From: a bacterium
Lineage (GTDB): Bacteria > Krumholzibacteriota > Krumholzibacteriia > G020349025
Reading direction: 5' to 3'
NCBI GenBank assembly: GCA_031362565.1
Contig: JANLSU010000119.1
Span: forward strand, 9,970 to 73,969
Length of the DNA: 64,000 nucleotides
Every line of letters begins with the position of its first letter. The first letter of the stretch is position 1. A program made the translations under genes and the position numbers. This document shows positions 20,909 to 46,176 of the stretch, piece by piece. The notes under the pieces were generated by a model, which made no database searches, was not told the DNA's origin, and saw only the letters and a list, made by a program, of their open reading frames with translations.

Positions 20909-20996
20909 AATTCAAAAGCGTTTGGACACCAAGCGGTGGTTTGCCGACAATGATGAGTTCCAGAGCACTACAGATCTCAGAACGAGGAACCACAGC

Positions 20997-29205: not shown

Positions 29206-32200
29206 CTACCGCACGAGCGTCATGCGCCGCTGCCGCATCCCAGCCGGAGTTTCGAGGCGATACAGATATGTACCGCTCGCAACTGCCACGCCGCGGTCAT
29301 CGCGTCCGTTCCACTGCGCGGAATGCTCACCGGCCGTTTCGACTCCGCTGACGAGCCCGCGGACGAGCCGGCCGCGAACGTCATAGATGCCCAGCGTCAC
29401 CTTGCCCGCCGTGGGCAATGCGTAGTCGATCTTCGTAGTTGGATTGAACGGATTCGGCACGTTCTGCGCGAGCACGACATCGCGCGCCGGCGGCAGGTCG
29501 CCCGGATCCGACGTCGGTGCGTTCGGCTGAATGCGCAGGTTGTCGATGATCCATCCCCAACCGTTCGCGCCCGGATCCGCGAACAAGCGGAAGCGCAGCA
29601 GAACGATGTCGCCGGGTGCGAAGACGTTCAGCAAATTCATGTCGTGGGCGCGCAGCATTGCGGCGGTACCACTCGCTCCGTTGTTGAATGCAGTTTCCCA
29701 TTCCGGATAGAGCCGGGCATCGTAGCCCGCCTCGATCGGTGTCCAGGTAATGCCATCTTTGGTGCCTTCGACGACGACATAGTCGTAGAAACTCGGGTCA
29801 CCGAAGACCGTGCCCGGTTCCCCGGGTTCGACGATCGCCACGTCGTCGAAAAGCACATCGGCGTGCGCGCTGGCGACACGAATCGGCACCGTCAACATGT
29901 AGGTCAGGGTCGTGTTGTCGGCGTAGTTGTGCGGCGAATGGATGGCTTTGCCGACAAAGCCGGCATTGGTCGTCACCGTAAAGCCGTTGCCGACGAAATC
30001 GTTGCCCGCGGCTTCGAAATCATTGTTGTACTGGACGCGTGCCGCTTGGAACGTGAACACATTGATGGTTCGCGAGACGGACGGGTATTGAACGCCGCCG
30101 CGATAGCCCACTGCCATCACAACGCGGATCCCGGGCGTGGTGACCGGGATTTGTATGAGCGCCGGGGCCTGCGCGACGTTCGCGGGCAGGGTGGTGACTC
30201 TTACGCCGTTCATCTGCACCTGCGTCGAATCGTACGCTGACCGCAGGTTGAGCGCGATGTCGAGCTGGCCGTCGGGTCCCTGGTACAGATTGTCGATGAG
30301 CGGCTTGAAGGTCTTGCCGGCGATCAACGACGGAATCTTCACGCTCCAGATTCCACGCCCATGGGTGCCGGCGACGACTTCGTCCTCCGATTCGGCCAGA
30401 TCCCACACGCTGACGCTCGACAACCCATTGTTCGCGAGCGCCCAGGTCGTGCCGCCGTTCGTCGACTCCACCAAGCCGATTTCGGTGGCCGCCCAAAGGT
30501 GCGTCGGATCGTCCGAGAATACGAGAAGATCGTAGACTGCGACGTCGGGGAACCCATTGGTGCTCGGACTGCCGCCCTCGAAGCCGGTGATGTCGGACCA
30601 GGTGCTGCCCAGATTCGTCGTCTTCAGAATCTTGGGGCGCCCGGCAAAGCTGAACAAAACGTACGCCGTGTTCTGATCCGTGGGATGCGTCGCGAGGCCC
30701 GAGATGCCGCCCATGGTCACGGTCGTATAATTAGGAACCGCCGCAAACGTCGCCGCGCCGTTCGTCGACACATGAATGCGCGCTGTGGCGTCCATCCGCG
30801 CCCCGCCCCAGACGATACTCGGGTTGGCGCGCGAGATCTTCACGTCATGGAAGCTGCCGATCGCGCCCCAAGTCCCGACAGCGACCGGCGCCAGCGCCCA
30901 GCTCGCGCCAAAATTCGTCGAGCGCCAAACACCCTGCCGGCCGACGGCACACAAGAAATCCGGCGATTGGTTGGTCTTGGCGATCTTGGTGATGAACGGC
31001 GCGTTGGCCGATCCAACGTCGGAGAGTCCCGAGGTCGCGGACGTCCAGGTGGCGCCGCCGTCCAAAGACCGCGCCAGGCCGTTGTACTGCGACCCGCCGA
31101 TCATCTTGAGCGGGTCGTCGAAGTGCCACGACGTCTCGTAGCCGTCGCCGCCGATGGCGTTGGTCCACGGCGTCAAACTGCTGGATCCGACCGGCGAGAA
31201 CCACGTGCCGTTGTCCTGCATGCCGCCGAAGTAGGCCTGCGCGCCCGGCCGTTTGTCCGCGCCGTAGAACTGCGTCGTCGTCAGTCCGACGATCGGGTTC
31301 GACCAGTTGGTCGATGTGCTCGCAGAAACCCCGATGCCGCCATCGTTGGTATTCAGCAAGCGCCAATTGGGACCCACCTGCAGAACGGCGAGTCCGTGGT
31401 GGTCGACGTGTACCGAGCCCGTCGAGAGCTGCGCCGTGGTGCGATTCGTGCCGCTCAGAGTGATCTTCCAGAGGCGAATGCCGCCCACGTACACAATGTT
31501 CGTGTTGGTTGGGTCACAAACGATCGTGTTGTCATACCAGCCTTGCGCGCCGAGCCAGTTGGGTTCGGTGCCCGTCTCGACGGTTCTGGACCAGCTCGTT
31601 CCGCCGTTCGTCGAGATCCACAACTCCGAATGCGCCGTGCCCTCGGCGGCGGCGTACAGGCGGTTCGGATCGAGGGGCGAGATCGCAATCTCGAAGCGCC
31701 CGGAGAGATCGGTAATCCCGGTGTTGATATAACTCCAGGTTTCGCCGGCATTGACCGACTTGACGATCCCCGCCTCGTCCACCGTGCCGTATTGAATATT
31801 GAAATTGGCCGGGTTCTCGACGATCTGCAAAATCTTCTTCACACGCCCGGCGGAGATGTCGGTCACCGCGAATTTCTCGACCCAGCTCAGCCCACCATCG
31901 ACGGACTTGTAGATGCTCGAGCGCGGCAATCCCGCCTCTTTGTAACGTCCAACGGTGCAGGCTGCAAGAACGATGTTCGGATCGGTGGGATCGACGATGA
32001 TGCGCGCCACATTGTTAAAGGCGGGATTGTTGATCGTGGCCGCCAGATGCGTCCAGGTCGCGCCGCGGTCGATGGACTTGAGAATGCCGTTGCCGTTGAT
32101 GACGTCGACGCTGTAGAAGCTCTCGCCCGTACCCACATACATCACGTTGTGGTTGCTTGCCGCCATCGCCAGCGACTGGCATGACAGGACGGGGAAATTC

Positions 32201-32709
32201 GCCGTCAATTCGGTCCAGGTTGCCCCGGTGTTGGTGGTTTTCCAAACGCCGCCACCCGCCGTGCCAATGAACCAGGTGTTGCGGTTCGGGTCATCCGGGT
32301 CGACGACGATCGCCAGCGCCCGGCCCGAGACGTTGCCGGGCCCGCGCGATAGCCAGGGAAGCGCCGTCGTGACCTTTTGCGTGGCGCGCGCCCGCGTCAG
32401 TTCGCGCACCCGGTAGCCCGCCGTGTATTCGGGTTCTTGACGGTCAGCCGGAATCCGCATTTGCATCAAGATGCGCGCGAACTGATCCGGTTCGTCGAAG
32501 CCGGGACGGTTGTCCTCGTCCTCTTCCTCGCGGTCCGCCTGGTGCTTGGACCGAGGTTGGGCGTCGGCGTCGCGCTTGGACTCGAGAACCTGGGCCGCCG
32601 AACGCAGTGGCTCCGGCACGACTTGGCGGTCGAGCGCCACGCGCAGCACCAGAACCAATCCCAAGAGACTCGAGCTCGCGACCAGGGTTCCACGCCAGAG
32701 GTTTCGCAT
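29206..32709 (-). CDS. Large secreted BNR/Asp-box (sortilin/VPS10-like) repeat protein with FlgD-Ig/T9SS-like C-terminal domain
   Basis: Repeated S/T-x-D-x-G-x-T-W units: TNTGATWTEL, SIDRGATWTHL, SVDGGLSWVE, SVNAGETWSY, STNGGTSWSR, SLDGGATWTS, STNFGASWAL, TTNLGSTWSD, STNGGTTWAL. Tail: VPNPFNPTTKIDYALP...GIYDVRGRLVRGL...AQWNGRDDRGVAVASGTYLYRL. Confidence 0.8.
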   Translation of the reverse strand: MRNLWRGTLVASSSLLGLVLVLRVALDRQVVPEPLRSAAQVLESKRDADAQPRSKHQADREEEDEDNRPGFDEPDQFARILMQMRIPADRQEPEYTAGYRVRELTRARATQKVTTALPWLSRGPGNVSGRALAIVVDPDDPNRNTWFIGTAGGGVWKTTNTGATWTELTANFPVLSCQSLAMAASNHNVMYVGTGESFYSVDVINGNGILKSIDRGATWTHLAATINNPAFNNVARIIVDPTDPNIVLAACTVGRYKEAGLPRSSIYKSVDGGLSWVEKFAVTDISAGRVKKILQIVENPANFNIQYGTVDEAGIVKSVNAGETWSYINTGITDLSGRFEIAISPLDPNRLYAAAEGTAHSELWISTNGGTSWSRTVETGTEPNWLGAQGWYDNTIVCDPTNTNIVYVGGIRLWKITLSGTNRTTAQLSTGSVHVDHHGLAVLQVGPNWRLLNTNDGGIGVSASTSTNWSNPIVGLTTTQFYGADKRPGAQAYFGGMQDNGTWFSPVGSSSLTPWTNAIGGDGYETSWHFDDPLKMIGGSQYNGLARSLDGGATWTSATSGLSDVGSANAPFITKIAKTNQSPDFLCAVGRQGVWRSTNFGASWALAPVAVGTWGAIGSFHDVKISRANPSIVWGGARMDATARIHVSTNGAATFAAVPNYTTVTMGGISGLATHPTDQNTAYVLFSFAGRPKILKTTNLGSTWSDITGFEGGSPSTNGFPDVAVYDLLVFSDDPTHLWAATEIGLVESTNGGTTWALANNGLSSVSVWDLAESEDEVVAGTHGRGIWSVKIPSLIAGKTFKPLIDNLYQGPDGQLDIALNLRSAYDSTQVQMNGVRVTTLPANVAQAPALIQIPVTTPGIRVVMAVGYRGGVQYPSVSRTINVFTFQAARVQYNNDFEAAGNDFVGNGFTVTTNAGFVGKAIHSPHNYADNTTLTYMLTVPIRVASAHADVLFDDVAIVEPGEPGTVFGDPSFYDYVVVEGTKDGITWTPIEAGYDARLYPEWETAFNNGASGTAAMLRAHDMNLLNVFAPGDIVLLRFRLFADPGANGWGWIIDNLRIQPNAPTSDPGDLPPARDVVLAQNVPNPFNPTTKIDYALPTAGKVTLGIYDVRGRLVRGLVSGVETAGEHSAQWNGRDDRGVAVASGTYLYRLETPAGMRQRRMTLVR

Positions 32710-35933: not shown

Positions 35934-37358
35934 TCACACCGATGGCCGGATGTTCTGATTCATCCGGAAGAGATTCGTGGGATCGAATTTCTTCTTGAGC
36001 GTGACGAGCCGGTCGTAGTTGCTGCCGTAGGCTGTCTTGACGCGCTCGCCCTCGTCCTGCGTCAAGAAGTTCACGTAGACGCCACCGGTCGCGAACGGCG
36101 CCGCCGCTTGGAAGAGTTCGCGCGCCCAGGCGATGCACTTGGTGTCGTTGGCCGGATCGGCCCAGCGGCCGTGCACGTTCATCACGAATTGCGCGTCGCG
36201 GTGCGTATAGGCGGTCGCTTCCGGCGCCACCCGGCTGACTGCGCCACCCAACTGCGCGACCGCGATCTCGGTCTGCGGATCGGGGATCTTGCGCGCGTGG
36301 GCAATCAGCACGTCGATCAGGCCGTCGCTCACTTCCAGGAAATCGTGCGACTTCCAGTAGTTACGTGCCCCGGGAGTCAAGAGCGGATCGAGAATCGTCT
36401 GCCAAGCCGTGAACGGATGCGGTGCGATGACGTCGGCGAGCGGCTTCCCGAAGTCGCGCAGTGGTTTCGCCATGCGCTCGCCATCTTCGATCGTGCCGTT
36501 GTAACAGACGGCGAGGGCGAGGATGCCCTTGCCGTGCCATTCCACCGGCAGGAAGGGCAAAGGCGGCGCCAGCCGCAGCACGAACCAGCAGACGAATTCC
36601 TCGGGCGTCGTGGCGATGAAGCTGCGGTAGAAGCGCAGCACATCCTTGGCCGCAGCGAGTGGATGGACGATGAGTCCCGAGAGCACCTCGGGCCCGACCG
36701 GATGGAGTTTGAATTCGAAGGACGTGACGACACCGAAATTGCCGCCGCCGCCACGAATGGCCCAGAAGAGATCCGCGTTCTCGGTGGCGCTCGCCTTCAC
36801 CAATTCACCGTTCGCCGTGACGACATCGACCGAATTGAGGTTGTCGATCGACAGCCCGTACTTGCGGCTCAACCAACCGAAGCCGCCACCGAGCGTCAAC
36901 CCGGCGACGCCGGTCGTGGAGTTGATTCCGAGTGGTGTCGCGAGTCCGAAGGCCTGCGCCGCCGTGTCGAATTCGCCGAGCGTCACACCTGCTTCGACGT
37001 GCGCGATGCGTTTTCCAGAATCGATGCGAACGCTCTTCATGGGCGACAGGTCGATCATGAGACCGCCATCGCAGACAGCATTACCGGCGATGTTGTGGCC
37101 GCCGCCGCGTACCGCCAGGACAAAGTCGTTCTCGCGCGCCAAGCTCACTGCCTGCACGACATCGTCGGCCGAAGCGCAACGCGCAATGAGCGCCGGCCGC
37201 CGATCGATCATCGCATTCCAAATCGTCCGCGCTTCGTCGTACTCCGACGACCCGGGCATCACGATGCGCCCGCGCAGCGCGCCTTTGAAATTCTGCAGGG
37301 CCGTTTCGGGCAGCGGCTTGTCGCCACCGGAGCGCGTTTTGATCTTCAGGTCGGGCAT
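35934..37358 (-). CDS. FAD-linked oxidase with berberine-bridge-like C-terminus
   Basis: GGAGGAA SD. FAD_binding_4-like RPALIARCASADDVVQAVSLARENDFVLAVRGGGHNIAGNAV...GGLMIDLSPM. The C-terminal YVNF...YGSNYDRLVTLKKKFDPTNLFRMNQNI is BBE-like. Confidence 0.9.
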   Translation of the reverse strand: MPDLKIKTRSGGDKPLPETALQNFKGALRGRIVMPGSSEYDEARTIWNAMIDRRPALIARCASADDVVQAVSLARENDFVLAVRGGGHNIAGNAVCDGGLMIDLSPMKSVRIDSGKRIAHVEAGVTLGEFDTAAQAFGLATPLGINSTTGVAGLTLGGGFGWLSRKYGLSIDNLNSVDVVTANGELVKASATENADLFWAIRGGGGNFGVVTSFEFKLHPVGPEVLSGLIVHPLAAAKDVLRFYRSFIATTPEEFVCWFVLRLAPPLPFLPVEWHGKGILALAVCYNGTIEDGERMAKPLRDFGKPLADVIAPHPFTAWQTILDPLLTPGARNYWKSHDFLEVSDGLIDVLIAHARKIPDPQTEIAVAQLGGAVSRVAPEATAYTHRDAQFVMNVHGRWADPANDTKCIAWARELFQAAAPFATGGVYVNFLTQDEGERVKTAYGSNYDRLVTLKKKFDPTNLFRMNQNIRPSV

Positions 37359-37435
37359 TGTTCCTCCAACGGGCCTCGAACAACTCCGGCGGCGCCTCGA
37401 CTGTAATGCGGGCGAGTCGGTGGCGGAAACCCCCG

Positions 37436-37930
37436 ATCGGCACCCCGCATGTTCATGCAGGCCGCGACCCTGGCACTCGGAACGGGCGGCTGTCGCGTGT
37501 GCTCACCACGCTGCTGCTCTTGCGCGCGGGATACGTATACGCACCGTATGCATCTTTGGAGCGGGTGAACGAGGAAAACAAGGACCTGTACTACAAGGCT
37601 TTGCGCCGCACGCAAACGACACTCCAGAGCGATGCACCGGACTGGGAGCCTTGGATCGGGTTCTTCCTGCGCTGCGTCAAGAAACAGAAGGACACCCTCG
37701 CGGCGCGGCTCGATCGCGAGTGGACCGCTCAGGGCGGTGAGGATGAATTAACGCAGCTCTCCCGCCAAGTGCTCAAAGCCCTGCGCGAACAAGACCGCCT
37801 GACCATCGCCCAGCTCATCTCGATCACCGGCGCCAATCGCAATACCCTCAAAGTGCGGCTCCGCGAGCTCGTGGCGGCCGGCCAAGTCCGCCGGCATGGC
37901 AGGGCGCGCGCGACTTGGTATTCGCTCTGA
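37436..37930 (+). pseudogene. 5'-truncated Fic/DOC-family gene remnant (C-terminal half with winged-helix tail)
   Basis: The post-motif Fic region is well conserved: NGRLSRVLTTLLLLRAGYVYAPYASLERVNEENKDLYYKALRRTQ...WEPWIGFFLRCVKKQ, plus an HTH-like LTIAQLISITGANRNTLKVRLRELVAAGQVRRHG. The catalytic HPFx[D/E]GNGR motif reads PHVHAGRDPGTRNGR (degenerate). The roughly 150-200 aa that normally precede it are absent: the FAD-oxidase start and SD occupy 37356-37375. Confidence 0.55.
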
Positions 37931-38175: not shown

Positions 38176-38793
38176 CTAGATCAGCGCGGCGGCGCATTCG
38201 ATCGCAGCGAGAATCTCCATCCGGTCCCACGTGGCGACCGGGGCACCGATGGCGTGAAGGATTTCCGGCGTCCGGCCGCGCGCCCGCGGGTGGCGCACCA
38301 CACAAACGCCCTTCCGCAGTTCAAGCCCGGTGCGGAGCTCCCAGTCGACCCAGTCCTGCCAGCGGGACCCGCTGCCAACGACGCAGACGACAATTGCGGC
38401 GCGCGCAATCTTTTCTTGGATGATCTCTTGCGCCAGCACCGCCGCTGGACTCTGGAACGGCGCCCGCAGGCTGCACTCGTAGAAGTCGAGTGCAATCTTG
38501 GGATGGCGTGTCAGCTTGTGAAGGTCGAGCACCTTCGCATGATCTTCCGCGTGCACGCTCACGAACACCCGGCGCGACTGGGCAACTTCGCGGGCTTCGC
38601 CGTGAAACGCGCGGCGCAGTTGCCGCAAGGAGCGGAATCCACGTGCGGCGAGGAAGGCGGCGATTCGCATGTCAGGCGGTGCGTTGAGGCGAAGGCCGTA
38701 CCACGCCTCGATGTCCGCCACGCAGACCCCGGGGAGGGCGCGGCCAAACGCGGCGCGGACTCGCGGGCAGAACTTGCGAATCTTCGTGCTCAT
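38176..38793 (-). CDS. TIR-like domain protein (DUF1863 / ThsB-like) with about 70-aa N-terminal extension
   Basis: RRVFVSVHAEDHAKVLDL...DFYECSLRAPFQS...IQEKIARAAIVVCVVGSGSRWQDWVDWELRTGLELRKGVCVVR...ATWDRMEILAAIECA matches the strand-helix pattern and W-V-x-W-E motif of the MTH538/ThsB TIR-like family. Start chosen at ATG 38793, where GC3 rises sharply; GTG at 38964 is an alternative. Confidence 0.7.
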   Translation of the reverse strand: MSTKIRKFCPRVRAAFGRALPGVCVADIEAWYGLRLNAPPDMRIAAFLAARGFRSLRQLRRAFHGEAREVAQSRRVFVSVHAEDHAKVLDLHKLTRHPKIALDFYECSLRAPFQSPAAVLAQEIIQEKIARAAIVVCVVGSGSRWQDWVDWELRTGLELRKGVCVVRHPRARGRTPEILHAIGAPVATWDRMEILAAIECAAALI

Positions 38794-38974
38794 CGGCTTT
38801 CCCCCACCAATGGCTCCCGGAGGTCGAAATCGCACCCTCGGGCAAAAATCGCGGTGACGCGCCGGATCCGTCGTCCTTGAACCAACGCGGGGAGTCCATC
38901 CGCCGGGCACGCCACCGCAACACGGCGCTTCGCCGCCGCGGCGGCCCCCGTTTGCGCTCGCCACAAGTAGGCGC

Positions 38975-39000
38975 GGGCGGCAGTACCCTCACTGCCGCCC
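38975..39000. terminator. 9-bp stem / 8-nt loop GC hairpin in the 288-nt spacer between the radical SAM and TIR-like genes
   Basis: GGGCGGCAG-TACCCTCA-CTGCCGCCC read directly from the sequence. It lies about 80 nt downstream of the radical SAM stop on the minus strand, with no U-tract. It could be a terminator or attenuator. Confidence 0.35.
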
Positions 39001-39081
39001 GCTCCGCCCTTGGGGGGGGACTTGTCCGCGTCCTATGATTGACAACGTCCCGAGGCAAGAATCTGCACGCGCCTGGAAGAA

Positions 39082-40236
39082 CTAATTTCCAACGCCCGCC
39101 CGCTGCGGCGACCGAACCCAGCGAACCGCGGTCGAGTTCGCCGCCACACCGCTGCCGGCGCTGCCCGCGCTGCCACCCCTGCCGGCCCCGCCCGCGCCCG
39201 CCCGCCGCAGCTCTCCATCACCGCCCTCCGCGAGTCCCTTCATTGGACAAACGAGCGTCGCCCGGTCGCCGGAAAAGAGCCCCCGCATCCAACGGCGCAT
39301 GTCGGGCCCCGAAAGCTCCATTCGCCCGCCGGGTCGCAAGCGCCCGACTTGATTGGCGGGGTGGTCGAGTGCCACCGTGCACTTGCCGATGCGGCCATCG
39401 GATCGCACCACGAGCGAGTTGCCGCGCGACGCGTAACAGACGGTCTCGAGATCGTCCGGGGTCACCAGTTCGACACCCAGTTCATCCGCCCGCTCGCGCA
39501 GGCGCACGAACACATCGGCCATGCGTTCCGCGGCGAGATAGCCGAACGTCGCGTCCGCCGGTCCGCCGAGCGGCGACAGCGGCCGCAAGAAAACCGCGAA
39601 GCGCGGGTCACCGCCGAACTCCGCTGCGAAGGCCTCGAGGAACGACCCGAGCGATGCTTCATTGTCGGCGCTCGCATGCAGTCGCATCAGCATCCGAAAC
39701 GTCGCATCGCGGCGCCGCATCGCGCTCAGGTTGCCCCAAATACGCTCGAACGTCGCGCCACCGCCGGCCCGCCGCCGCGTCCGATCGTGTTCCGCGGCCG
39801 GACCATCGAATGACACTTGATAGCGTCTAACACCAAGCTCGAGAAGCCGCCCGGCGACATCGGGCGTCAAGAACCAGCCGTTCGTTGTGATGTCGCCGCT
39901 GACCCGCAGCTTGGGATTCGCAACCGCCAGCCGTTGTACCGCGCCCATCACGTCGTCGATCACCGCGCGCGCCAGGAGCGGTTCACCGCCAAACCAAGCG
40001 ATGGCGAGTGAATCCAGCTCCGGGGCCCGGATTTCCAACCATTCGACGAGCGCACGCACGATCCACGGCCGCATGCGCCCCGATTCGAATGTCTCGTAGC
40101 AGTAGGTGCACCGGAAATTGCATTTCTCCGTCGGCATGACGATGACGTGCAACTCGCGGGCGTCGAGGCCGCGGTACACCTCTCGCAGCGGAACTGCGAG
40201 AGGTGTTGCCGCGCCGGCTCGTGGAGCCTTCAGCAA
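39082..40236 (-). CDS. Radical SAM enzyme with C-terminal twitch/partial-SPASM auxiliary-cluster domain (peptide-maturase-like)
   Basis: CxxxCxxC = CNFRCTYC in LHVIVMPTEKCNFRCTYCYETFESGRM. Also GGEPLL and VSFDGPAAEHDRTR. C-terminal CYASRGNSLVVRSDGRIGKC (G-x4-C) plus a single later Cys (LVCPMKG). There is no ATG upstream of the cluster motif. Candidate starts are TTG 40236 (overlaps the stop of the upstream small gene) or GTG 40179. The track start at 40377 gives an implausible Arg-rich extension. Confidence 0.85.
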   Translation of the reverse strand: MLKAPRAGAATPLAVPLREVYRGLDARELHVIVMPTEKCNFRCTYCYETFESGRMRPWIVRALVEWLEIRAPELDSLAIAWFGGEPLLARAVIDDVMGAVQRLAVANPKLRVSGDITTNGWFLTPDVAGRLLELGVRRYQVSFDGPAAEHDRTRRRAGGGATFERIWGNLSAMRRRDATFRMLMRLHASADNEASLGSFLEAFAAEFGGDPRFAVFLRPLSPLGGPADATFGYLAAERMADVFVRLRERADELGVELVTPDDLETVCYASRGNSLVVRSDGRIGKCTVALDHPANQVGRLRPGGRMELSGPDMRRWMRGLFSGDRATLVCPMKGLAEGGDGELRRAGAGGAGRGGSAGSAGSGVAANSTAVRWVRSPQRAGVGN

Positions 40237-40625
40237 CGCGCATCCACGACGACGGGTGCATCGTCGTCGTCTTCGGCGAAAATGGCGCCGCCCTTTGCCT
40301 TTGCCCTTGCCCTCGCGCTCGCATTGGCTGCCGCAGGCATCGCGAGCGGCCCAACGCGAAACAGTCCCGAAAAACACCCCTCAACGGGGTTGTCCAGGAA
40401 CTGAAGGACAGCGCCTCTCAGATCGGCGTTCTTGAGAGTGATCCGCCCGGTCGCTGCGTCGAATGCGACTTCGTCGCCCTCGAAGTTGCCGAGGGCGGCT
40501 GCATTGATGCCCCGCGGCTTGGCCTTCGGGGCACGCGCTCCGGGTGCGGCGCGCTTGGCGCCACGTGCTGGCGGAATCGGGCTCTTCTTGCTCTTGGGAT
40601 TCGATTTCCGAGGTTCGATTGGCAT
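40230..40625 (-). CDS. 131-aa K/P-rich hypothetical protein; candidate substrate or partner of the adjacent radical SAM enzyme
   Basis: AAGGAG 7 nt upstream of the ATG at 40625. GC3 is high over the first roughly 85 codons and weaker over the last roughly 45, where another frame is also open. Sequence: MPIEPRKSNPKSKKSPIPPARGAKRAAPGARAPKAKPRGINAAALGNFEGDEVAFDAATGRITLKNADLRGAVLQFLDNPVEGCFSGLFRVGPLAMPAAANASARARAKAKGGAIFAEDDDDAPVVVDARC. Confidence 0.5.
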   Translation of the reverse strand: MPIEPRKSNPKSKKSPIPPARGAKRAAPGARAPKAKPRGINAAALGNFEGDEVAFDAATGRITLKNADLRGAVLQFLDNPVEGCFSGLFRVGPLAMPAAANASARARAKAKGGAIFAEDDDDAPVVVDARC

Positions 40626-40666
40626 GTGGTTCTCCTTCAAGGTTTATATCGATCCATCGATCCGGT

Positions 40667-43636
40667 TTAACGCCAGTCTCCAACTGCTACGAATCCTGCC
40701 CAGTGATACGGATGTCCGCCCGCACCGCGGGCCCGCGCTGCTTGCAGCGCACCAAGGCTCGCGGCGCGCACTGCCGCCGCCGTATCCATTTTCTTCTGGA
40801 AGTGATTCTCGTACAGCGAATGCATCCATGCCCCTGCATCCTCGTCGGCGACAGACCAAAGGCTCGCGATGACCGTTCGAGCGCCCGCCTGTTGAAAGAC
40901 GCGGCGGAGCCCCATGACACCCTCGCGGGCGCGAAGCTCACCCAGCCCGGTATCGCAAGCCGACAACACCACCCACTCGACGCCTTCCAGGTCGAGTGAG
41001 GAAACTTCGTCCACCGTCAGAATGCCGTCGTCGCCTTCGACGGCGCCGGCCGCGGCGCGCCGGTTGGCGCCCGCGAATGCGAGTCCCGCAAAGGGCACAT
41101 CACGCGCGGGATCGGCCAAGAACCCGTGGGTCGAGAGGTGAATCACGCGCCGGCCGGCGGCCGCAGCTTTGAAGCCGCGTTCGGTCGCCTTCTGGCCCAA
41201 GAGACAAAGCGTGTCGGCCGACACGGCGCGCGCCCACAACACCTTGATGTCCAACGCTTCGCGCCCCGAAGCCGGCAGCGGCCGGAATCGCAACCCGCTG
41301 GCCACGCGCCGCGAGTGCGCTGCTTGGGCCATTTCGGGTGGACCGAAATCCGGATTGCCGACCGCGAGCAGTCCGACATTCCGCTGCTGCGTTCTCTGCG
41401 GCACGAGATCGCGTTCGGCGGTCAGAAGATGCACCACGGTTTCGCCTTCAACGAGATAGCGCTGGCCGTCCAACGGCAGCGCCATGAAATTGACGAGGTG
41501 GATGGCCCCGTCGGGCACGACGAACACCCGGCGCGCCGCCCGGAGCGCCGTCGCAAGTGGATCCCAGAGCGCCCGGCGCACGCGCTCGCCGTCGGCGCGA
41601 CACGCGGTTTCGCCGGCAGCGAGCACCGCGTCCGTTTGATTCGCACCCGCTTGCAGATCACGCGACCATGCAGCGATCCCGGTGTCTATCGCCCCGGCGC
41701 TTCCGAGGTCGTAGGCCGCGACCGTGTGTTTGTCGCCACTGACGACGAATGCGGCGTACGCCTGTACGGGCTTCGCATTGAGCCCGCCGGCGGCGCTGGC
41801 GGTGGGAATGCGCGTGTACCGCACGTACACAACGAGCGCCTCACCGGCATGCAGGTGGGCGGCAACCGCCTCGAAGTCGATGCGCTGCCGTTGCTGCTCG
41901 GTGTGATAGGCAGCGCTCTGTGCCGCCAGTTGTGCTTCCACGGCATCCTTGGCGGCGAGCGTCGCGTCGAGGCTGTGCTGATAGTCGGCATTCGACGCGC
42001 CGCCGGGCCCGCGCACGGCGAGCGACGCATAGCGTGTCCGCGCCCGGTCGAGCTCGCGGTCGAGACGGATGACCAGCGAGTCCTTGGAAGCGGCAACAGC
42101 GCGCCGCTCCGCCGCCACCTCGTCGAACACCAGGAGACGCGATTGCACGATGGCATCCACAACCTGGCGCGCGGTTGCCGGGTCGGGGTGCTGCGTGGCA
42201 ATCGAAACGGCGCAGTCGAGACCCGAGGTCCGAATGGCCCCGTAGTCGGTCGCCTGGCGTTCCGGCGCGTGCCGCGCCATGCGCCGCAGTTGTTCGCGGC
42301 CCACAGCTTCCGCATGCAGCGCCTCTGCCAACGCCGGCCCGATGGCGCCGGACTGGGCCGTGGCCCGCGCCAGAACCGCTTCGCAATCCATGGTGCGCGG
42401 GTGCTCGCGGCCAAACGCGTGCTCGTAGATCCGCTCGGCGGCGGCGCTCTTCGTTTGCGCCGCTTCGACGTGTCCCTCGGCGAGATCCAATTCCGCGAGT
42501 TCGATCTGACAGCTCGCCACATCCGGATGTTCCGCCCCGAGCAAATCGGTCCGCAGGTGGAGCACTTCTTCGTACCCGCGCCGTGCCGCCGGCAAGTCTT
42601 GGAGGTTCATTTGCAACTCCGCCGCGCCGAGCAGGTACGCCGCCAAGTCGAGCGGCGAAGTGCCCGGCTGCGACCGCAGGATCTTCAAAGCCTGCTCATA
42701 CTTGGCCTGCGCGTCCCCGAAACGCCCTTGTTTGCGATCCAAGTCCGCGAGGTTGTCGAGAACGTTGGCGATGAGTGGATTGGTGGGCTCGAGCTTGCGG
42801 GTGCGAATCGCAAGGGCGCGGTCGAAGCACTGGCGCGCTTCCACGTAGCTGCCCGTTTCCATCAACAGGGCACCCAGGTTGTTCAGCACGCCTGCTACGG
42901 AGAGATTGTCGGTGCCCAGAGCCTTCTCGCGAATCGCCAACGCGCGGTCGTAGGCGTCGCGGGCGGATGGGAAATCGCTCGTCCACCAATACAAGATCGC
43001 CAGGCCCATGAGCGTGCGGCTCACGTTCATAGGGTCTTTGTCGAAGTTCCGCTCGCGAATGGTGAGTGATTGCTTGAGGCTCGTCTCCGCCGCATCGTAG
43101 TCGCCGAGCTTAGTAAGCAGAATGCCGAGGTCCTTGAGCGTTTCCGCGACCTCCGGGCTCGCGACGCCGAAGGCGGTGCGGCGGATCGCGAGCGCGCGCT
43201 CGTAGCAACCGCGGGCGCCGGAGAAACGTCCCGTATCTTCATACACGATCGCCAAATTGTTCAGGCTGGTGGCCACGTCCGGGTGCGTGGGGCCGGAGAG
43301 TTTCTCGTGCAGATGCACGGCGCGTTCCGCGAACTCCCGCACGTCCGCCACGCCCGAGTGCGCTGCACGCGTCGCGGCTTCGACCAAGAGATCGAGCACT
43401 GCCGCGGTCTCGGAGGAGTTTTTGCCGGACGACGCTTCGACACGGCGGAGCGCGCTCCGCGCGTGTTGCTCGGCGCCGGTGAAGTTGGTGCTGTCGATTT
43501 GGGCCCGAATGGCGGTGATCTCGGGTGCGGCCGGCAAATCGGCTGCGCCCGACGCGCGGGGCACCGGCAACGCCCACCAACCCAACCAAGCGACGATGAG
43601 CGTCCGGCTGAAGTACGGTCGGGGCTTCCGCATCAA
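40667..43636 (-). CDS. Signal-peptide-bearing TPR (TPR_10/12-type) plus CHAT caspase-like protease
   Basis: Signal-like MMRKPRPYFSRTLIVAWLGWWALPVPRASGA. At least 8 kinesin-light-chain-type TPRs (LNNLAIVYEDTGRFSGARGCYERALAIR, LNNLGALLMETGSYVEARQCFDRALAIR and others). CHAT dyad IHLSTHGF and VVLSACDTGLG, plus ASLWSVAD. Confidence 0.9.
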   Translation of the reverse strand: MMRKPRPYFSRTLIVAWLGWWALPVPRASGAADLPAAPEITAIRAQIDSTNFTGAEQHARSALRRVEASSGKNSSETAAVLDLLVEAATRAAHSGVADVREFAERAVHLHEKLSGPTHPDVATSLNNLAIVYEDTGRFSGARGCYERALAIRRTAFGVASPEVAETLKDLGILLTKLGDYDAAETSLKQSLTIRERNFDKDPMNVSRTLMGLAILYWWTSDFPSARDAYDRALAIREKALGTDNLSVAGVLNNLGALLMETGSYVEARQCFDRALAIRTRKLEPTNPLIANVLDNLADLDRKQGRFGDAQAKYEQALKILRSQPGTSPLDLAAYLLGAAELQMNLQDLPAARRGYEEVLHLRTDLLGAEHPDVASCQIELAELDLAEGHVEAAQTKSAAAERIYEHAFGREHPRTMDCEAVLARATAQSGAIGPALAEALHAEAVGREQLRRMARHAPERQATDYGAIRTSGLDCAVSIATQHPDPATARQVVDAIVQSRLLVFDEVAAERRAVAASKDSLVIRLDRELDRARTRYASLAVRGPGGASNADYQHSLDATLAAKDAVEAQLAAQSAAYHTEQQRQRIDFEAVAAHLHAGEALVVYVRYTRIPTASAAGGLNAKPVQAYAAFVVSGDKHTVAAYDLGSAGAIDTGIAAWSRDLQAGANQTDAVLAAGETACRADGERVRRALWDPLATALRAARRVFVVPDGAIHLVNFMALPLDGQRYLVEGETVVHLLTAERDLVPQRTQQRNVGLLAVGNPDFGPPEMAQAAHSRRVASGLRFRPLPASGREALDIKVLWARAVSADTLCLLGQKATERGFKAAAAGRRVIHLSTHGFLADPARDVPFAGLAFAGANRRAAAGAVEGDDGILTVDEVSSLDLEGVEWVVLSACDTGLGELRAREGVMGLRRVFQQAGARTVIASLWSVADEDAGAWMHSLYENHFQKKMDTAAAVRAASLGALQAARARGAGGHPYHWAGFVAVGDWR

Positions 43637-43682
43637 CGTCCTCTTCGGTTCGCGGCGCGGAGCTCCTCTCCTTGGGCACCTT

Positions 43683-45497
43683 CTACGGTTCGCGCTTCAC
43701 CAAGTGAATCCGCCACGTCCAAACTCCCGGCGCACGTTCCAAGTCGCGGATCAGTCCGGCGATCGTGCCGGCGTGATCCGCGGGTTTGGGCCGCGACACC
43801 AGTCCATCGATGCCGCGTGTCAGGCGCGCTGCGCCGACGGCGGCAAAGTCATTGGCGCCTTCTGAATTGACGCGCGGTAATGCCGCCAGAGTCGTTTCCA
43901 ATGCCTCGATCGGTTGGCGGGCCGCGACCACGAGAATCGTTTCGGCGGCGCCATCGCGCGCCACCGACCAGTTGGCTTCTTCGCCCTGCAAACCGGTTGG
44001 CAGCCGCAGCGCTTGTTTGCCCGGCAAGCGTGGCGCAGCACCTGGCTGGGTCGGATGCAAGACGTAGGCACGGCCTTCGTTGTCCTCGTCCAAAACCCAA
44101 ACACGCAACGGTTGCGCCATCTTCAGCTCGAGAAACAACTGATCGAAGGCTTGCACCGTATCGCCGTCCGCGAGTTGTTGGCCTTTGCCGCTACGGTCGC
44201 GGAAGAGCCGGGCTTCGGCGTGGGCGGGCAAGCGGGCGGGCAGCAGAACCAATGCCGCGGCGGCAGCGCCCGCCGCGGCGACACCGAGAGCGACACGCCA
44301 CGGGTGGCGAGTGAACGCGTGCCACCACGGTGTGGACGGTGGTGAATCAGGGACTGGCACCAAGTCGAGGCTCGCCAGCAGTGCCGACTGCATCTGGCCG
44401 GCACTTCCGAAGCGTTGCGCCGGATCCGATGCAAGAGCGCGCTCGACGGCGCGCGTGAACTCCGGTAGAACGTCCGTCCGCTTTTCGGCAAGCGACGCGC
44501 GCTCGCCGCGCGCCTGGCGCGTCATGAGTTCGTCGATGTCGTCGGTGTCGATCGGATAGGAACCCGTGACCAACCAGAACAGCAACCCTCCGAGCGCGTA
44601 GATGTCGGCTGCTGCCGTCGGGCGGCCGCCGCGCAGGACCTCGGGGGCGACAGAAAGCGCCGTGACCGGTCGCGCTCCGGCGTCGGCGTCGGATTCAAGA
44701 TCCAATGCCGAACCGAAGTCGGTGAGCACGATGCGCCCACCTTTCTCACGCATGACGTTCGCGGGCTTGATGTCGCCATGGACGAGGTTCGTGCGGTGCA
44801 ACTCTGCCAGCGCACCACAAAGGTCGATGCCGATCGCGGCGGCTTCGCGCGCACTGAGCGGGCCGCGCGTTTCGACGCAATGTTGCAGGGTCTCGCCGCG
44901 AATGAGATCGGTCCAAATTCCCGCCCTGCCATCGTGCACAGCACAGTCGAAGACCGTGACGATGTTGGGATGACGGACACGCGCCTGGTTGCGGGCTTCA
45001 TCGAGAGACTTCTCGAGCCCGGCGGAGTCGCCGGCACGGCGCAATTTGAGCGCCACGTCGCGCTTGAGGTTGGGGTCGTAGGCGCGATACACCTCGCCGA
45101 ATCCACCGGTGCCGATTCTTTCGTGAACCACCAGCCGCCCCCAGTGCCACGCTGGACTGGGGGCCGGCATCTGCCCCGGCGGCGCATCCTCGGCCGGCTC
45201 GTCCGCATCCGGCGCGGCCGCCGATGTCCCGGCCGCCACGGGTGGCGACGGTGTGGTTCCCGTCGCTGTCGCGGCGCGTTCCTGCGCCGCACGCGCGACG
45301 TTGTGCCAGTCGGCTTGATAGGCGTCCGCCAACCGCGCGATGTCGGCGAGACGATCGAGGCCGGCTTGAGCGTCAACGTCGCCGGCGCCCGCACGCTCGC
45401 GGTCCCAATCGACTGTCCGGTGGTCGGCGAGCGCCTCGGCAACGCGCTGCAGCCGATCGTCGCCGCGCGCCTGCTTATTTTTCCCCATTCTTCCCAT
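43683..45497 (-). CDS. Hanks-type Ser/Thr protein kinase: cytoplasmic N-extension, kinase, one TM, DUF4384-like outer domain
   Basis: GTGGFGEVY, VALK, LVHGDIKPANV (a non-RD kinase, H-G-D), DFGSA, VAPEV. TM segment VALGVAAAGAAAAALVLL. The C-terminal domain is paralogous to ORF 1-566. The start (45497 or 45488) overlaps the sigma gene's 3' end. Confidence 0.9.
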   Translation of the reverse strand: MGRMGKNKQARGDDRLQRVAEALADHRTVDWDRERAGAGDVDAQAGLDRLADIARLADAYQADWHNVARAAQERAATATGTTPSPPVAAGTSAAAPDADEPAEDAPPGQMPAPSPAWHWGRLVVHERIGTGGFGEVYRAYDPNLKRDVALKLRRAGDSAGLEKSLDEARNQARVRHPNIVTVFDCAVHDGRAGIWTDLIRGETLQHCVETRGPLSAREAAAIGIDLCGALAELHRTNLVHGDIKPANVMREKGGRIVLTDFGSALDLESDADAGARPVTALSVAPEVLRGGRPTAAADIYALGGLLFWLVTGSYPIDTDDIDELMTRQARGERASLAEKRTDVLPEFTRAVERALASDPAQRFGSAGQMQSALLASLDLVPVPDSPPSTPWWHAFTRHPWRVALGVAAAGAAAAALVLLPARLPAHAEARLFRDRSGKGQQLADGDTVQAFDQLFLELKMAQPLRVWVLDEDNEGRAYVLHPTQPGAAPRLPGKQALRLPTGLQGEEANWSVARDGAAETILVVAARQPIEALETTLAALPRVNSEGANDFAAVGAARLTRGIDGLVSRPKPADHAGTIAGLIRDLERAPGVWTWRIHLVKREP

Positions 45498-46176
45498 TCT
45501 TGCCGTTCTTGAGCCCCATCTCCTTGGCCAAGTTGACGAGGCCGCGGCTCAAGACCATGCGGGCGGCGTTTCGCGTCCGCTTCCCGAGCGCCTCCATGAT
45601 GACGGCGGCACTCGCGCCCCATTCGACGTGCAGCGCGACCGCGATTTGCTGGTCCTCGTCGAGCCGTCCCAATGCCGCCCGGTAGCGGGCCTCGAATTCG
45701 GAGCCCAAGACTCCGTCCAATGGCGTCGCGGCGCCGTCTACCATGTCTGGATCCAACACCGAGAATTCCGGCTTGCCGTCCGCCCACCGGTATTCGGTCG
45801 CCACGAGATTGCGGACGATGGTGCGCAGGTACGCCAGGAACGCGCCCGGACCTCGCGGCTCGAAGCCGTTCATCTTGTTGAACGCTTTCGTGAAGGCGAT
45901 CTGCACGAGGTCTTCGGTCACGAGCCGGGCTCGGGCTCGCCCGGCCAGCTTGCCGTGCGCCGCCCGGCGGAGGGCCGGAGTGAACCGGCGCATGAGATCG
46001 GTAATGGCGCGTTCGTCCCCGCTCCGCGCCCGGATGATCAGAATGGCCGTCGTTTCGAGTGGGCGAGGTGGTTCTCCCCCCCCGCCCGTCGGGTGGTCTG
46101 GTCCGTCCAACACAAAAACCTCGCTCGGGGTCCCCGATCCGGTTTCGGCCTGGCGTGACGATTTGGGCTGGCACAT
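45475..46176 (-). CDS. ECF-type RNA polymerase sigma-70 family factor (kinase-associated type)
   Basis: Region 2-like ITDLMRRFTPALRRAAHGKL...EDLVQIAFTKAF and AFLAYLRTIVRNLVATEYR. Region 4-like LDEDQQIAVALHVEWGASAAVIMEALGKRTRNAARMVLSRGLVNLAKEM. No anti-sigma gene follows; a kinase follows instead. The exact start is uncertain. Confidence 0.8.
   Translation of the reverse strand: MCQPKSSRQAETGSGTPSEVFVLDGPDHPTGGGGEPPRPLETTAILIIRARSGDERAITDLMRRFTPALRRAAHGKLAGRARARLVTEDLVQIAFTKAFNKMNGFEPRGPGAFLAYLRTIVRNLVATEYRWADGKPEFSVLDPDMVDGAATPLDGVLGSEFEARYRAALGRLDEDQQIAVALHVEWGASAAVIMEALGKRTRNAARMVLSRGLVNLAKEMGLKNGKNGKNGEK
45484..45510. repeat. 9-bp tandem repeat x3 (minus strand AAG-AAY-GGS, encoding K-N-G x3) at the sigma/kinase gene overlap
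   Basis: Plus strand reads cccattctt cccattctt gccgttctt. It encodes the sigma C-terminus LKNGKNGKNGEK. In the other frame it supplies both candidate ATGs of the kinase (MGRMGKNKQ). Confidence 0.8.

Follow-up and report, generated by a model that had tools for sequence, protein, structure and literature searches.

A candidate RiPP-type cassette linking a precursor peptide and a radical SAM enzyme to a TPR-CHAT protease and a sigma factor/kinase pair

Several described bacterial systems resemble in part the locus considered here, a run of minus-strand genes in a 64-kb stretch of contig JANLSU010000119.1 (Krumholzibacteriota; the whole stretch is referred to as the window) that encodes a sigma factor of the extracytoplasmic function (ECF) type, a Ser/Thr kinase, a TPR-CHAT caspase-like protease, a small protein, and a radical S-adenosylmethionine (rSAM) enzyme. 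Among rSAM peptide maturases, NxxcB forms a β-thioether between a Cys and the Asn located three residues upstream, with Asp also accepted and an auxiliary Fe-S cluster believed to keep the Cys thiol in place (PMC9389541); PapB joins Cys to Asp or Glu (PMC9413430). FxSxx-COOH systems are cytoplasmic and are tied to vWA-MoxR and STAND proteins (PMC7159879). Csx29, the TPR-CHAT protein of type III-E systems, cleaves Csx30; this target partners an ECF sigma factor, and in some cases its C-terminal domain is a DUF4384 (bioRxiv 2022.08.17.504292). DdvA is an anti-sigma factor with a periplasmic TPR-CHAT sensor, for which a site-1 protease role has been proposed (PMC11506125). The pairing of an ECF sigma factor with a Hanks-type kinase is an established regulatory type (PMC7826278, PMC13147305).

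A preliminary description of the window, made from the DNA letters, proposed a six-gene cassette that also took in a TIR-like gene, and read it as a possible pathway for peptides that are ribosomally synthesized and modified post-translationally (RiPPs), wired to a caspase/TIR cell-fate module. The six open reading frames (ORFs) lie where it placed them, with the spacings it gave (Table 1): the sigma factor and kinase genes overlap by 23 nt, and the gaps that follow, down to the TIR-like gene, are of 46, 41, 50, and 288 nt. The motifs HLSTHG, LSACDTG, CNFRCTYC, and WVDWE are present in the encoded proteins, and profile searches support the domain assignment of every gene except that of the 131-aa small protein. 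The peptide-modification part of the proposal was also upheld, as a conserved precursor-rSAM pair is evolutionarily linked to TPR-CHAT and sigma factor/kinase genes. On balance, the evidence favors an undescribed RiPP-type cassette of five genes, in which the rSAM enzyme would modify the precursor, the CHAT protease would process it, and the sigma factor/kinase pair would regulate the whole.

Recurrence of the cassette in related loci

Genomic neighborhoods were read for rSAM homologues on long contigs, from a total of more than 1080 homologues. The genes for the ECF sigma factor, the kinase with a DUF4384 tail, TPR-CHAT, the small protein, and the rSAM enzyme recur together elsewhere: with the window counted, 12 independent loci carry a TPR-CHAT gene within 6 kb of the rSAM gene, and a sigma factor gene is found in 8 of these 12. 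The order sigma factor, kinase (DUF4384), TPR-CHAT, small ORF, rSAM occurs in the loci labeled L001 and L084; in L076/L077 and L087 the small ORF and rSAM gene come first and are followed by sigma factor, kinase, and TPR-CHAT. L078 has sigma factor, kinase, a fragment of an insertion sequence, rSAM, TPR-CHAT, and small ORF, and L085 has TPR-CHAT, small ORF, rSAM, one further gene, sigma factor, and kinase. In L081 the sigma factor gene is followed by a zf-HC2 anti-sigma factor, TPR-CHAT, small ORF, and rSAM. TPR-CHAT, small ORF, and rSAM are together in L003, L083, L004, and L040, with the sigma factor and kinase absent within the available sequence, and L080 has only upstream CHAT remnants. 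At least four gene orders thus occur among CHAT-linked loci, and the small ORF stays beside the rSAM gene throughout these rearrangements.

The CHAT-linked rSAM enzymes share 42–60% mutual identity and form a single clade in a neighbor-joining tree, separate from homologues of Nostoc, Stenotrophomonas, Labrenzia, Rhodopseudomonas palustris BisB18, and Acidobacteria, among others. Because the linkage survives gene-order shuffling at this level of identity, functional linkage is strongly supported, and because the adjacency of the five genes recurs in other loci, it is far beyond chance; the co-localization of CHAT, sigma factor, and kinase genes with rSAM genes in other genomes, which had been anticipated, is therefore borne out. 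This does not extend to the TIR-like gene.

The TIR-like protein matches the PADLOC ThsB1 profile (2.4e-9) and the TIR structure 8fz9 in the PDB (2.3e-6) and keeps the WxxWE motif, with no match to any NCBIfam model. Only two homologues were found in 5.8 billion proteins, both on contigs shorter than 1.4 kb; one of these contigs has no cassette gene, and the adjoining gene resembles by eye a nucleoside phosphorylase. No TIR homologue was present in any related locus whose neighborhood was compared. In the window, the gene lies behind a GC-rich hairpin that is a possible terminator closing the cassette; the hairpin is without a strong T tract, and the terminator scan made no call there. Given its absence from related loci, its position behind the hairpin and 288 nt, and its two homologues only, the TIR-like gene was rejected as the cassette member it had been taken for. 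The convergent Fic gene is a truncated remnant that abuts a long ORF: its C-terminal winged-helix part is left, covering positions 200–347 of the 361-position SoFic profile (the C-terminal 40%), and it scores 36.7 bits against an NCBIfam SoFic cutoff of 550. Both genes are unrelated neighbors of the cassette.

A RiPP pathway wired to a caspase/TIR abortive-infection module, with the TIR-like protein as a NADase effector encoded in the same operon, is accordingly very improbable. The TIR-like domain with its WxxWE motif is genuine and the adjoining SoFic-like remnant hints at a defense island, but the TIR-like gene has the isolated standing just described and the CHAT protein is predicted to be extracytoplasmic. 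The wider suggestion of a caspase/TIR cell-fate or anti-phage module fell on similar points, since the CHAT proteins of the family appear extracytoplasmic and no ThsA, Cas, or STAND gene accompanies the window cassette; no CRISPR array, RNA family, or tRNA was found in the 64-kb window, and a PADLOC check on seven window proteins returned no complete defense system. PADLOC matches of the kinase (PD-T4-6, mad6) and of the rSAM enzyme (pVip) were set aside as generic domain matches. The tempting label of a "TIR/caspase defense system" is thereby removed as unsupported.

Precursor family, rSAM enzyme, and proposed chemistry

The small protein of the window has a basic K/R/P-rich N-terminus, the mid-sequence segment EVAFDAATGRITLKNADLRGAVLQF (aa ~53–78), and the C-terminal end VVVDARC-COOH. 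No Pfam or NCBIfam model matches any precursor of the family (for the window protein, no NCBIfam match at E ≤ 0.01), and profile searches with the small protein gave 8 and 14 matches only; since divergence within the family is too rapid for sequence searches to follow, precursors were collected by neighborhood instead. The small ORFs share the mid-sequence motif [VF]-x-[FV]-D-x-x-G-R-[IV]-x-[IL]-x-x-x-x-L-x-x-x-[ILV]. A hidden Markov model (HMM) seeded on this motif was run over 15,992 ORFs of the fetched loci and detected it in rSAM-adjacent small ORFs at ~27 loci. Matches outside the seed (L009, L034, L036 and L037 with two copies each, L041, L045, L048, L050, L055) all lie near an rSAM gene, almost all of them immediately upstream, in distant lineages, and the motif is also present in small ORFs beside distant rSAM homologues of Nostoc, Rhodopseudomonas, and Labrenzia. 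As these non-seed matches stand beside distant rSAM genes, the motif is taken to be a family-wide leader. An AlphaFold2 (AF2) model of the window precursor, used for secondary-structure hints only because of its low predicted local distance difference test score (pLDDT 53), is mostly disordered, apart from a hairpin and a helix where the leader motif lies and a short VVVD strand.

Most precursors of the CHAT-linked clade end in h-h-[D/N]-x-R-C-COOH: VVVDARC in the window, VIVDVRC in L001, VVVDVRC in both copies of L003, TIVNLRC in L076, MIVD[IV]RC in L080 and L084, TVVDYRC in L087, and MILNYRC, MVVDVRC, and VILDARC in database members. The preliminary description had correctly noted that the small protein does not end in F-x-S-x-x, and had overlooked this conserved C-terminal motif of another kind. 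The region after the leader (the core) was analyzed across the family, using 60 Cys in 27 cores and 5000 within-core shuffles. Asp or Asn stands three residues before Cys in 37 of the 60 cases, versus 7.0 expected, and four residues before it in 21 of 60, counts that were each reached in 0 of the 5000 shuffles; positions −1, −2, −5, and −6 show no such enrichment. The motif [D/N]-x-x-C is present in 25 of the 27 precursors.

In sister clades, some cores are arrays of 5–10 [D/E/N]-x-x-C repeats, often D-x-x-C-P (L005, 8707–9321; L057; L041, 1–564; L055, 3–434), in precursors of up to 205 aa with Lys/Ala-rich spacers. The Nostoc precursors have a Gly-Gly site and adjoin a C39-peptidase ATP-binding cassette (ABC) exporter (PCAT) and HlyD; the Stenotrophomonas loci have the same type of C39-peptidase exporter. 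C39 peptidases process double-glycine leader peptides. Since leader and core features of this kind, the Gly-Gly site, and C39-exporter neighbors are RiPP hallmarks, the 131-aa small protein is, by sequence, assigned as the conserved precursor of the adjoining rSAM enzyme. One precursor sub-clade carries lipoprotein signal peptides (VLAC, VFGC; L076, 7558–7899; L087, 7595–7930; P0126–P0128; P0133–P0135) and another carries Tat-type lipoprotein signals (RREFLR...GC; L078, 12244–12675; P0140), which implies that the modified product ends outside the cytoplasm.

The CxxxCxxC motif of the rSAM enzyme begins ~20 residues from the N-terminus, which indicates that the enzyme is without a RiPP recognition element (RRE) domain. 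Exactly six Cys are invariant in 144 rSAM sequences, three in the SAM cluster (20/24/27) and three at an auxiliary site (248/267/311). With one auxiliary cluster and three protein Cys ligands, the enzyme is of the twitch type; of the earlier assignment as "twitch/SPASM-like," the first half stood and the second did not, as the full SPASM Cys set is absent. The window enzyme stays below the cutoff of every NCBIfam model (TIGR04463, 102/525 bits; PapB NF047865, 84.1/340; anSME TIGR03942, 45.1/349; FxsB TIGR04269, 41.3/370), its best matches being peptide maturases. The same is true of distant family members, such as the L017 homologue, which scores 63 bits with SCIFF TIGR03974 against a cutoff of 425. 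In a Foldseek search, the AF2 model of the enzyme (pLDDT 88) matched the thioether synthase CteB best (5why, TM-score 0.63), followed by anSME, ChlB, and SkfB. The last ~45 aa of the window enzyme form a Gly/Ala/Ser-rich, disordered tail (pLDDT <50), which is absent from most homologues (~335–350 aa).

These data bear on the reading of the locus as a chance adjacency, in which a housekeeping rSAM enzyme (e.g., a sulfatase maturase) would happen to lie next to unrelated regulators, the small ORF being a noncoding artifact of high G+C content. High-GC DNA does hold many spurious ORFs, and the rSAM enzyme has weak matches to anSME and MoaA models. The small ORF, though, is conserved at the protein level in its leader and C-terminal motifs, the genes co-occur repeatedly in shuffled order, the neighbor of the rSAM gene is a precursor gene with no sulfatase gene adjacent, and the anSME score is far under its cutoff. 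Recurrent neighborhoods, leader-HMM matches, the core statistic, and the rSAM clade together refute this reading, which is left with hardly any probability; in keeping with the preliminary description, the enzyme falls outside the anaerobic sulfatase maturase group.

For the proposed RiPP pathway, a mechanism can be outlined that goes beyond what is shown here, namely the gene content, its conservation, the motifs, and the fold. The leader, forming a β-hairpin and a helix around D-x-x-G-R-I, would be recognized by the cytoplasmic twitch-type rSAM enzyme; the auxiliary cluster would hold Cys131, and its sulfur would be joined to a side-chain carbon of Asp128. The D-A-R-C-COOH tail would thereby acquire a small thioether ring, in the manner of NxxcB on N-x-x-C. 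The core rule, an auxiliary site that is open, and the NxxcB and PapB precedents are the grounds on which we infer this linkage, and by this analogy formation of the Cys131–Asp128 ring by the rSAM enzyme is cautiously favored.

TPR-CHAT protease, sigma factor, and kinase

The TPR-CHAT protein of the window has an N-terminal signal-like segment, TPRs of the kinesin-light-chain type (aa ~40–460), which are similar to kinesin light chain TPRs in the PDB, and a CHAT domain with the predicted dyad His837 (HLSTHG) and Cys894 (LSACDTG), whose motifs are kept in relatives. CHAT proteins begin with a lipobox in L001 (ALSAC) and L081 (LISC) and with hydrophobic N-termini in L004, L078, L083, L084, and the window. 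The protein had been called exported at the outset; the signal-like and lipobox N-termini stand, and an extracytoplasmic location is what they predict. Sister clades carry C39-peptidase ABC exporters in place of CHAT, which favors CHAT as the processing protease of the clade product; moreover, CHAT is retained without a nearby sigma factor or kinase in L003, L004, L040, and L083, and is therefore tied more tightly to the precursor and rSAM enzyme than to the sigma factor. In the proposed mechanism, the TPR-CHAT protein, borne by its signal peptide, would work outside the cytoplasm, where the TPR region would bind and the CHAT domain would cleave the modified precursor, filling the role of the C39-peptidase exporters of the sister clades. 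That the modified precursor is what TPR-CHAT acts on is put forward as a tentative proposal.

Other peptidase genes accompany the cassette in some loci. Directly after the rSAM gene, in the position held by the TIR-like gene in the window, L001 (11008–12501) and L084 (9175–10869) encode homologous proteins of ~500–560 aa whose C-terminal halves are rich in repeats; they have a GDSG motif of the trypsin-like kind and no Pfam match. L004 (1851–3542, 7398–9509) encodes a C-terminal processing peptidase of the S41 type that carries a PDZ domain, together with a HExxH-type protein; an additional peptidase is found in L040 (2658–4397), S41/PDZ and HExxH types being reported for L004 and L040. A HExxH-type protein is encoded in L078 (12700–13836), and the HExxH-type proteins match M10 or M64 weakly. 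Within the window, two further caspase-family proteins contain Peptidase_C14, one of them with many WD40 repeats, and the genome seems rich in caspase-like proteases; a protein with a Peptidase_C39-like domain is encoded ~20 kb from the cassette (Table 1).

In all the kinases, the kinase domain precedes a single transmembrane (TM) helix and then a ~180-aa tail with a DUF4384 match; the last 180 aa show conservation across six loci. In the window kinase, the TM helix (aa 400–424) is the only hydrophobic segment, and the DUF4384-like tail is predicted to be extracytoplasmic. The sigma factor gene lies next to a kinase gene of the same architecture in six other loci (L001, L077, L078, L084, L085, L087). 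Region 2.2 of the window sigma factor reads VTEDLVQ, the motif of the kinase-linked family being [EDV]-T-x-D-[LI]-V-Q; its Thr is conserved in all kinase-linked sigma factors and is Ala in the anti-sigma-linked L081, a sequence pattern that is suggestive only. The kinase would activate the ECF sigma factor by phosphorylation, the pair acting as the usual regulators of the cassette, and control of the cassette by sigma factor and kinase is judged probable. In L076/L077 and L087, a GerE/LuxR-type regulator gene precedes the precursor gene and a histidine kinase gene is close by (upstream in L076/L077, after CHAT in L087), which may provide a second control layer. Sigma-70 promoter and terminator scans of the window were uninformative.

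The same components could instead form a trans-envelope signaling switch like DdvA/DdvS, in which an external cue leads CHAT to cleave or remodel the kinase's extracytoplasmic DUF4384 tail (or an anti-sigma factor) and so to turn the sigma factor on, the peptide (e.g., antimicrobial or protective) being an output of the regulon that CHAT leaves untouched. Such a switch is a less probable alternative that has to be taken seriously: the periplasmic TPR-CHAT of DdvA is a proposed site-1 protease of an anti-sigma factor (PMC11506125), Csx29 cleaves a sigma factor partner that sometimes ends in DUF4384 (bioRxiv 2022.08.17.504292), CHAT is kept in L081 where the zf-HC2 anti-sigma factor replaces the kinase, and the predictions place both CHAT and the kinase tail outside the membrane. 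It accounts poorly for L003, L004, L040, and L083, which keep precursor and rSAM enzyme beside CHAT with no sigma factor or kinase in the available sequence, and for the limitation of CHAT to one rSAM clade, which is easier to understand if CHAT acts on the clade product. In a profile comparison, the periplasmic part of the L081 anti-sigma factor showed no similarity to the extracytoplasmic kinase tails (probability 0.1). A CHAT-receiver domain shared by these tails and the L081 anti-sigma factor was considered and is unsupported by this comparison. The two ideas might also be combined in a caspase-gated, RiPP-based autoinducing or envelope-alarm loop: the ring-closed D-x-R-C tail would reach the envelope, in some lineages as a lipoprotein, periplasmic TPR-CHAT would read and cut the tail, and the cleavage product or CHAT itself would act on the DUF4384 tail of the kinase, which would then phosphorylate the ECF sigma factor. 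This loop is considered rather unlikely.

Several observations weigh against the RiPP-type reading with CHAT processing and sigma factor/kinase regulation. The D-x-R-C end is missing in 5 of the 13 loci of the clade, so that a simple model in which the TPR region reads the C-terminal tail is not universal. The window precursor, like several others, has no recognizable export signal and the cassette encodes no exporter, which leaves unexplained how a peptide modified in the cytoplasm would come into contact with a protease in the periplasm. The additional proteases of several loci (S41, HExxH-type, trypsin-like) could do the processing instead. By sequence, the rSAM enzyme is as near to ChlB, a cyclophane synthase, and to anSME as it is to CteB, and it falls under every NCBIfam cutoff, those of the curated maturase families PapB and SCIFF included. 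In the sigma factor, the acidic residues of region 2.2 are kept, unlike in phosphorylation-dependent ECF43, and when the regions upstream of sigma factor genes and operon starts were searched for a bipartite ECF-type promoter in common, nothing rose above shuffles.

If the RiPP-type reading is right, a large family of RRE-less twitch-type rSAM enzymes gains a precursor family, a leader motif, and a [D/N]-x-x-C core rule, and a RiPP class is opened in Proteobacteria, Cyanobacteria, Acidobacteria, and uncultured soil lineages. Few substrates are known for bacterial CHAT or caspase-like proteases, and the conserved partner would be a direct candidate substrate; were the caspase-gated loop true, the peptide would be the first defined small-peptide substrate of a bacterial CHAT protease. 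The repeated association of TPR-CHAT with DUF4384 and ECF sigma factors, seen also in DdvA and type III-E systems, would then suggest a shared protease-to-sigma signaling logic that could be approached here without CRISPR.

Beyond the cassette, the window encodes three large, probably secreted proteins that end in a FlgD Ig-like domain (Table 1). The same domain is found on a neighbor protein in L084; it may function as a tag for sorting and may hint at the host lineage.

Table 1. Coordinates of the cassette, its parts, and other features of the window (positions of the 64-kb stretch)
Feature	Position	Strand	Details
ECF-type sigma factor	45475–46176	−	Sigma70_r2 31.1 bits; TIGR02937 41.4 bits; actual start maybe near 46050
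Hanks-type Ser/Thr kinase, 604 aa	43683–45497	−	Pkinase 2.5e-37; DUF4384 1.1e-4 (weak)
Kinase domain	~44394–45128	−
Kinase TM helix	~44226–44300	−
DUF4384-like kinase tail	~43911–44144	−	continues to the C-terminus
TPR-CHAT caspase-like protease, 989 aa	40667–43636	−	CHAT 6.9e-58; TPR_12 1.9e-54
CHAT domain	~40676–41593	−
Candidate precursor peptide, 131 aa	40230–40625	−	GGAG 8 nt before ATG; alternative 136-aa form from 40640
Core end of precursor	40233–40253	−
Radical SAM peptide maturase (predicted), 365 aa as gene-called (P0001)	39082–40179	−	Radical_SAM 2e-17
Disordered tail of rSAM enzyme	39082–39216	−
GC-rich hairpin between rSAM and TIR-like genes	38970–39005	−	15-nt arms, 93% complementary; 6-nt loop
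ThsB-type TIR-like protein, 205 aa (P0129)	38176–38793	−	ThsB_TIR 34.9 bits; gathering cutoff 21.2
Fic (SoFic-like) C-terminal remnant	37358–37930	+	convergent with TIR-like gene; PADLOC SoFic 5.4e-22
Long ORF abutting Fic remnant	35934–37358
Peptidase_C14 protein, 780 aa	563–2905	+
WD40-repeat/Peptidase_C14 protein, 1379 aa	2934–7073	−
Peptidase_C39-like protein, 788 aa	17455–19821	−
Proteins ending in FlgD Ig-like domain	8283–10748; 20922–23258; 29206–32709
Hybrid signaling protein, 1682 aa	55987–61035	−	CheB methylesterase, CheR methyltransferase, several PAS, histidine kinase, receiver domain

Comparison with described systems

The combination of a CHAT domain with an rSAM enzyme was not found in the literature searched, nor was a relevant link between CHAT and RiPPs, and neither Pfam nor NCBIfam has a model for the rSAM family or its precursors; the view that no described system has this gene set was thus sustained. 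Two systems suggested by single components were rejected. A ThsB-type TIR protein is present, but no ThsA match was found by PADLOC among the seven window proteins scanned, and the Thoeris assignment fails; as for type III-E craspase (Cas7-11/Csx29/Csx30/RpoE), there is no repeat array in the 64 kb and no cas-like PADLOC match for the cassette.

FxSxx-COOH systems (FxsA/FxsB/FxsC plus a TPR protein; Haft and Basu 2011; Kaur et al. 2020, PMC7159879), to which the preliminary description had compared the locus, are its nearest analogue in concept: a small protein that diverges rapidly and bears a conserved C-terminal peptide is accompanied by an rSAM maturase, a TPR protein, a peptidase, and a downstream TIR protein. 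They differ in their C-terminal peptide, which is F-x-S-x-x rather than h-h-[DN]-x-R-C, and in that the cassette has no conserved TIR, no vWA-MoxR core, and a TPR region fused to an exported CHAT domain rather than to vWA or AP-ATPase. Membership is not supported by the models: FxsB lies far under its cutoff, TPR-CHAT reaches 127.3 of 300 bits with FxSxx_TPR (NF040586), and there is no FxsA or FxsC match. It is therefore unlikely that the cassette is a conflict system of this kind, in which the rSAM-modified small protein would be cleaved and the released C-terminal peptide would bind the TPR region and switch on CHAT as a toxin or alarm. The similar set of parts (fast-diverging small protein, rSAM enzyme, TPR, and proteases, with a TIR-like gene in the window only; PMC7159879) and the sub-threshold FxSxx_TPR match of the TPR region (127 bits) point toward such a system; pointing away from it are the low model scores, the lack of a vWA-MoxR, AP-ATPase, STAND, or zincin peptidase gene in the window, the non-conserved TIR, the PADLOC result, and the predicted export of the cassette CHAT, FxSxx-type systems being cytoplasmic.

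Type III-E systems share with the five-gene cassette the genetic linkage of TPR-CHAT to an ECF sigma factor and DUF4384-containing partners, and differ in that their CHAT protein is cytoplasmic whereas that of the cassette has a signal-like N-terminus and is predicted to be exported. DdvA likewise couples an ECF sigma factor to an extracytoplasmic TPR-CHAT (PMC11506125). In the cassette, however, TPR-CHAT is a separate secreted protein or lipoprotein without the zinc anti-sigma domain (the window protein has no zf-HC2 match and no internal TM segment; in L081 the zf-HC2 protein is separate), the regulator is usually a Ser/Thr kinase, and the linked genes are rSAM and precursor, not CBASS or CRISPR. 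The ECF43 pairs EcfP-PknT and EcfK-PknS are alike in the overlap of the sigma factor gene with the gene for a single-pass membrane Ser/Thr kinase that has an extracytoplasmic sensor domain, and perhaps in the Thr of region 2.2; they differ in that the cassette sigma factor has x-T-x-D, not QTTA, and the kinase a DUF4384-like sensor domain.

The closest parallel for the proposed chemistry is offered by the NxxC ranthipeptides of streptococci (NxxcA/NxxcB) and the PapB type, which are alike in having an rSAM maturase and a core Cys placed three residues after Asn or Asp. Close sequence kinship is undetectable, the cassette enzyme lacks an RRE and has only three auxiliary Cys, and the precursors of the cassette family are long (80–205 aa) and carry another leader. 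Soil, water, and cyanobacterial lineages, all Gram-negative, are the hosts, unlike the streptococci of NxxC, and the partner genes are CHAT and the ECF sigma factor/kinase pair, versus Rgg/SHP quorum-sensing regulators in the NxxC systems (PMC9389541, PMC13361665). The cassette nonetheless shares with the ranthipeptide type a maturase of the SPASM/twitch group with an auxiliary site and a [D/N]-x-x-C core.

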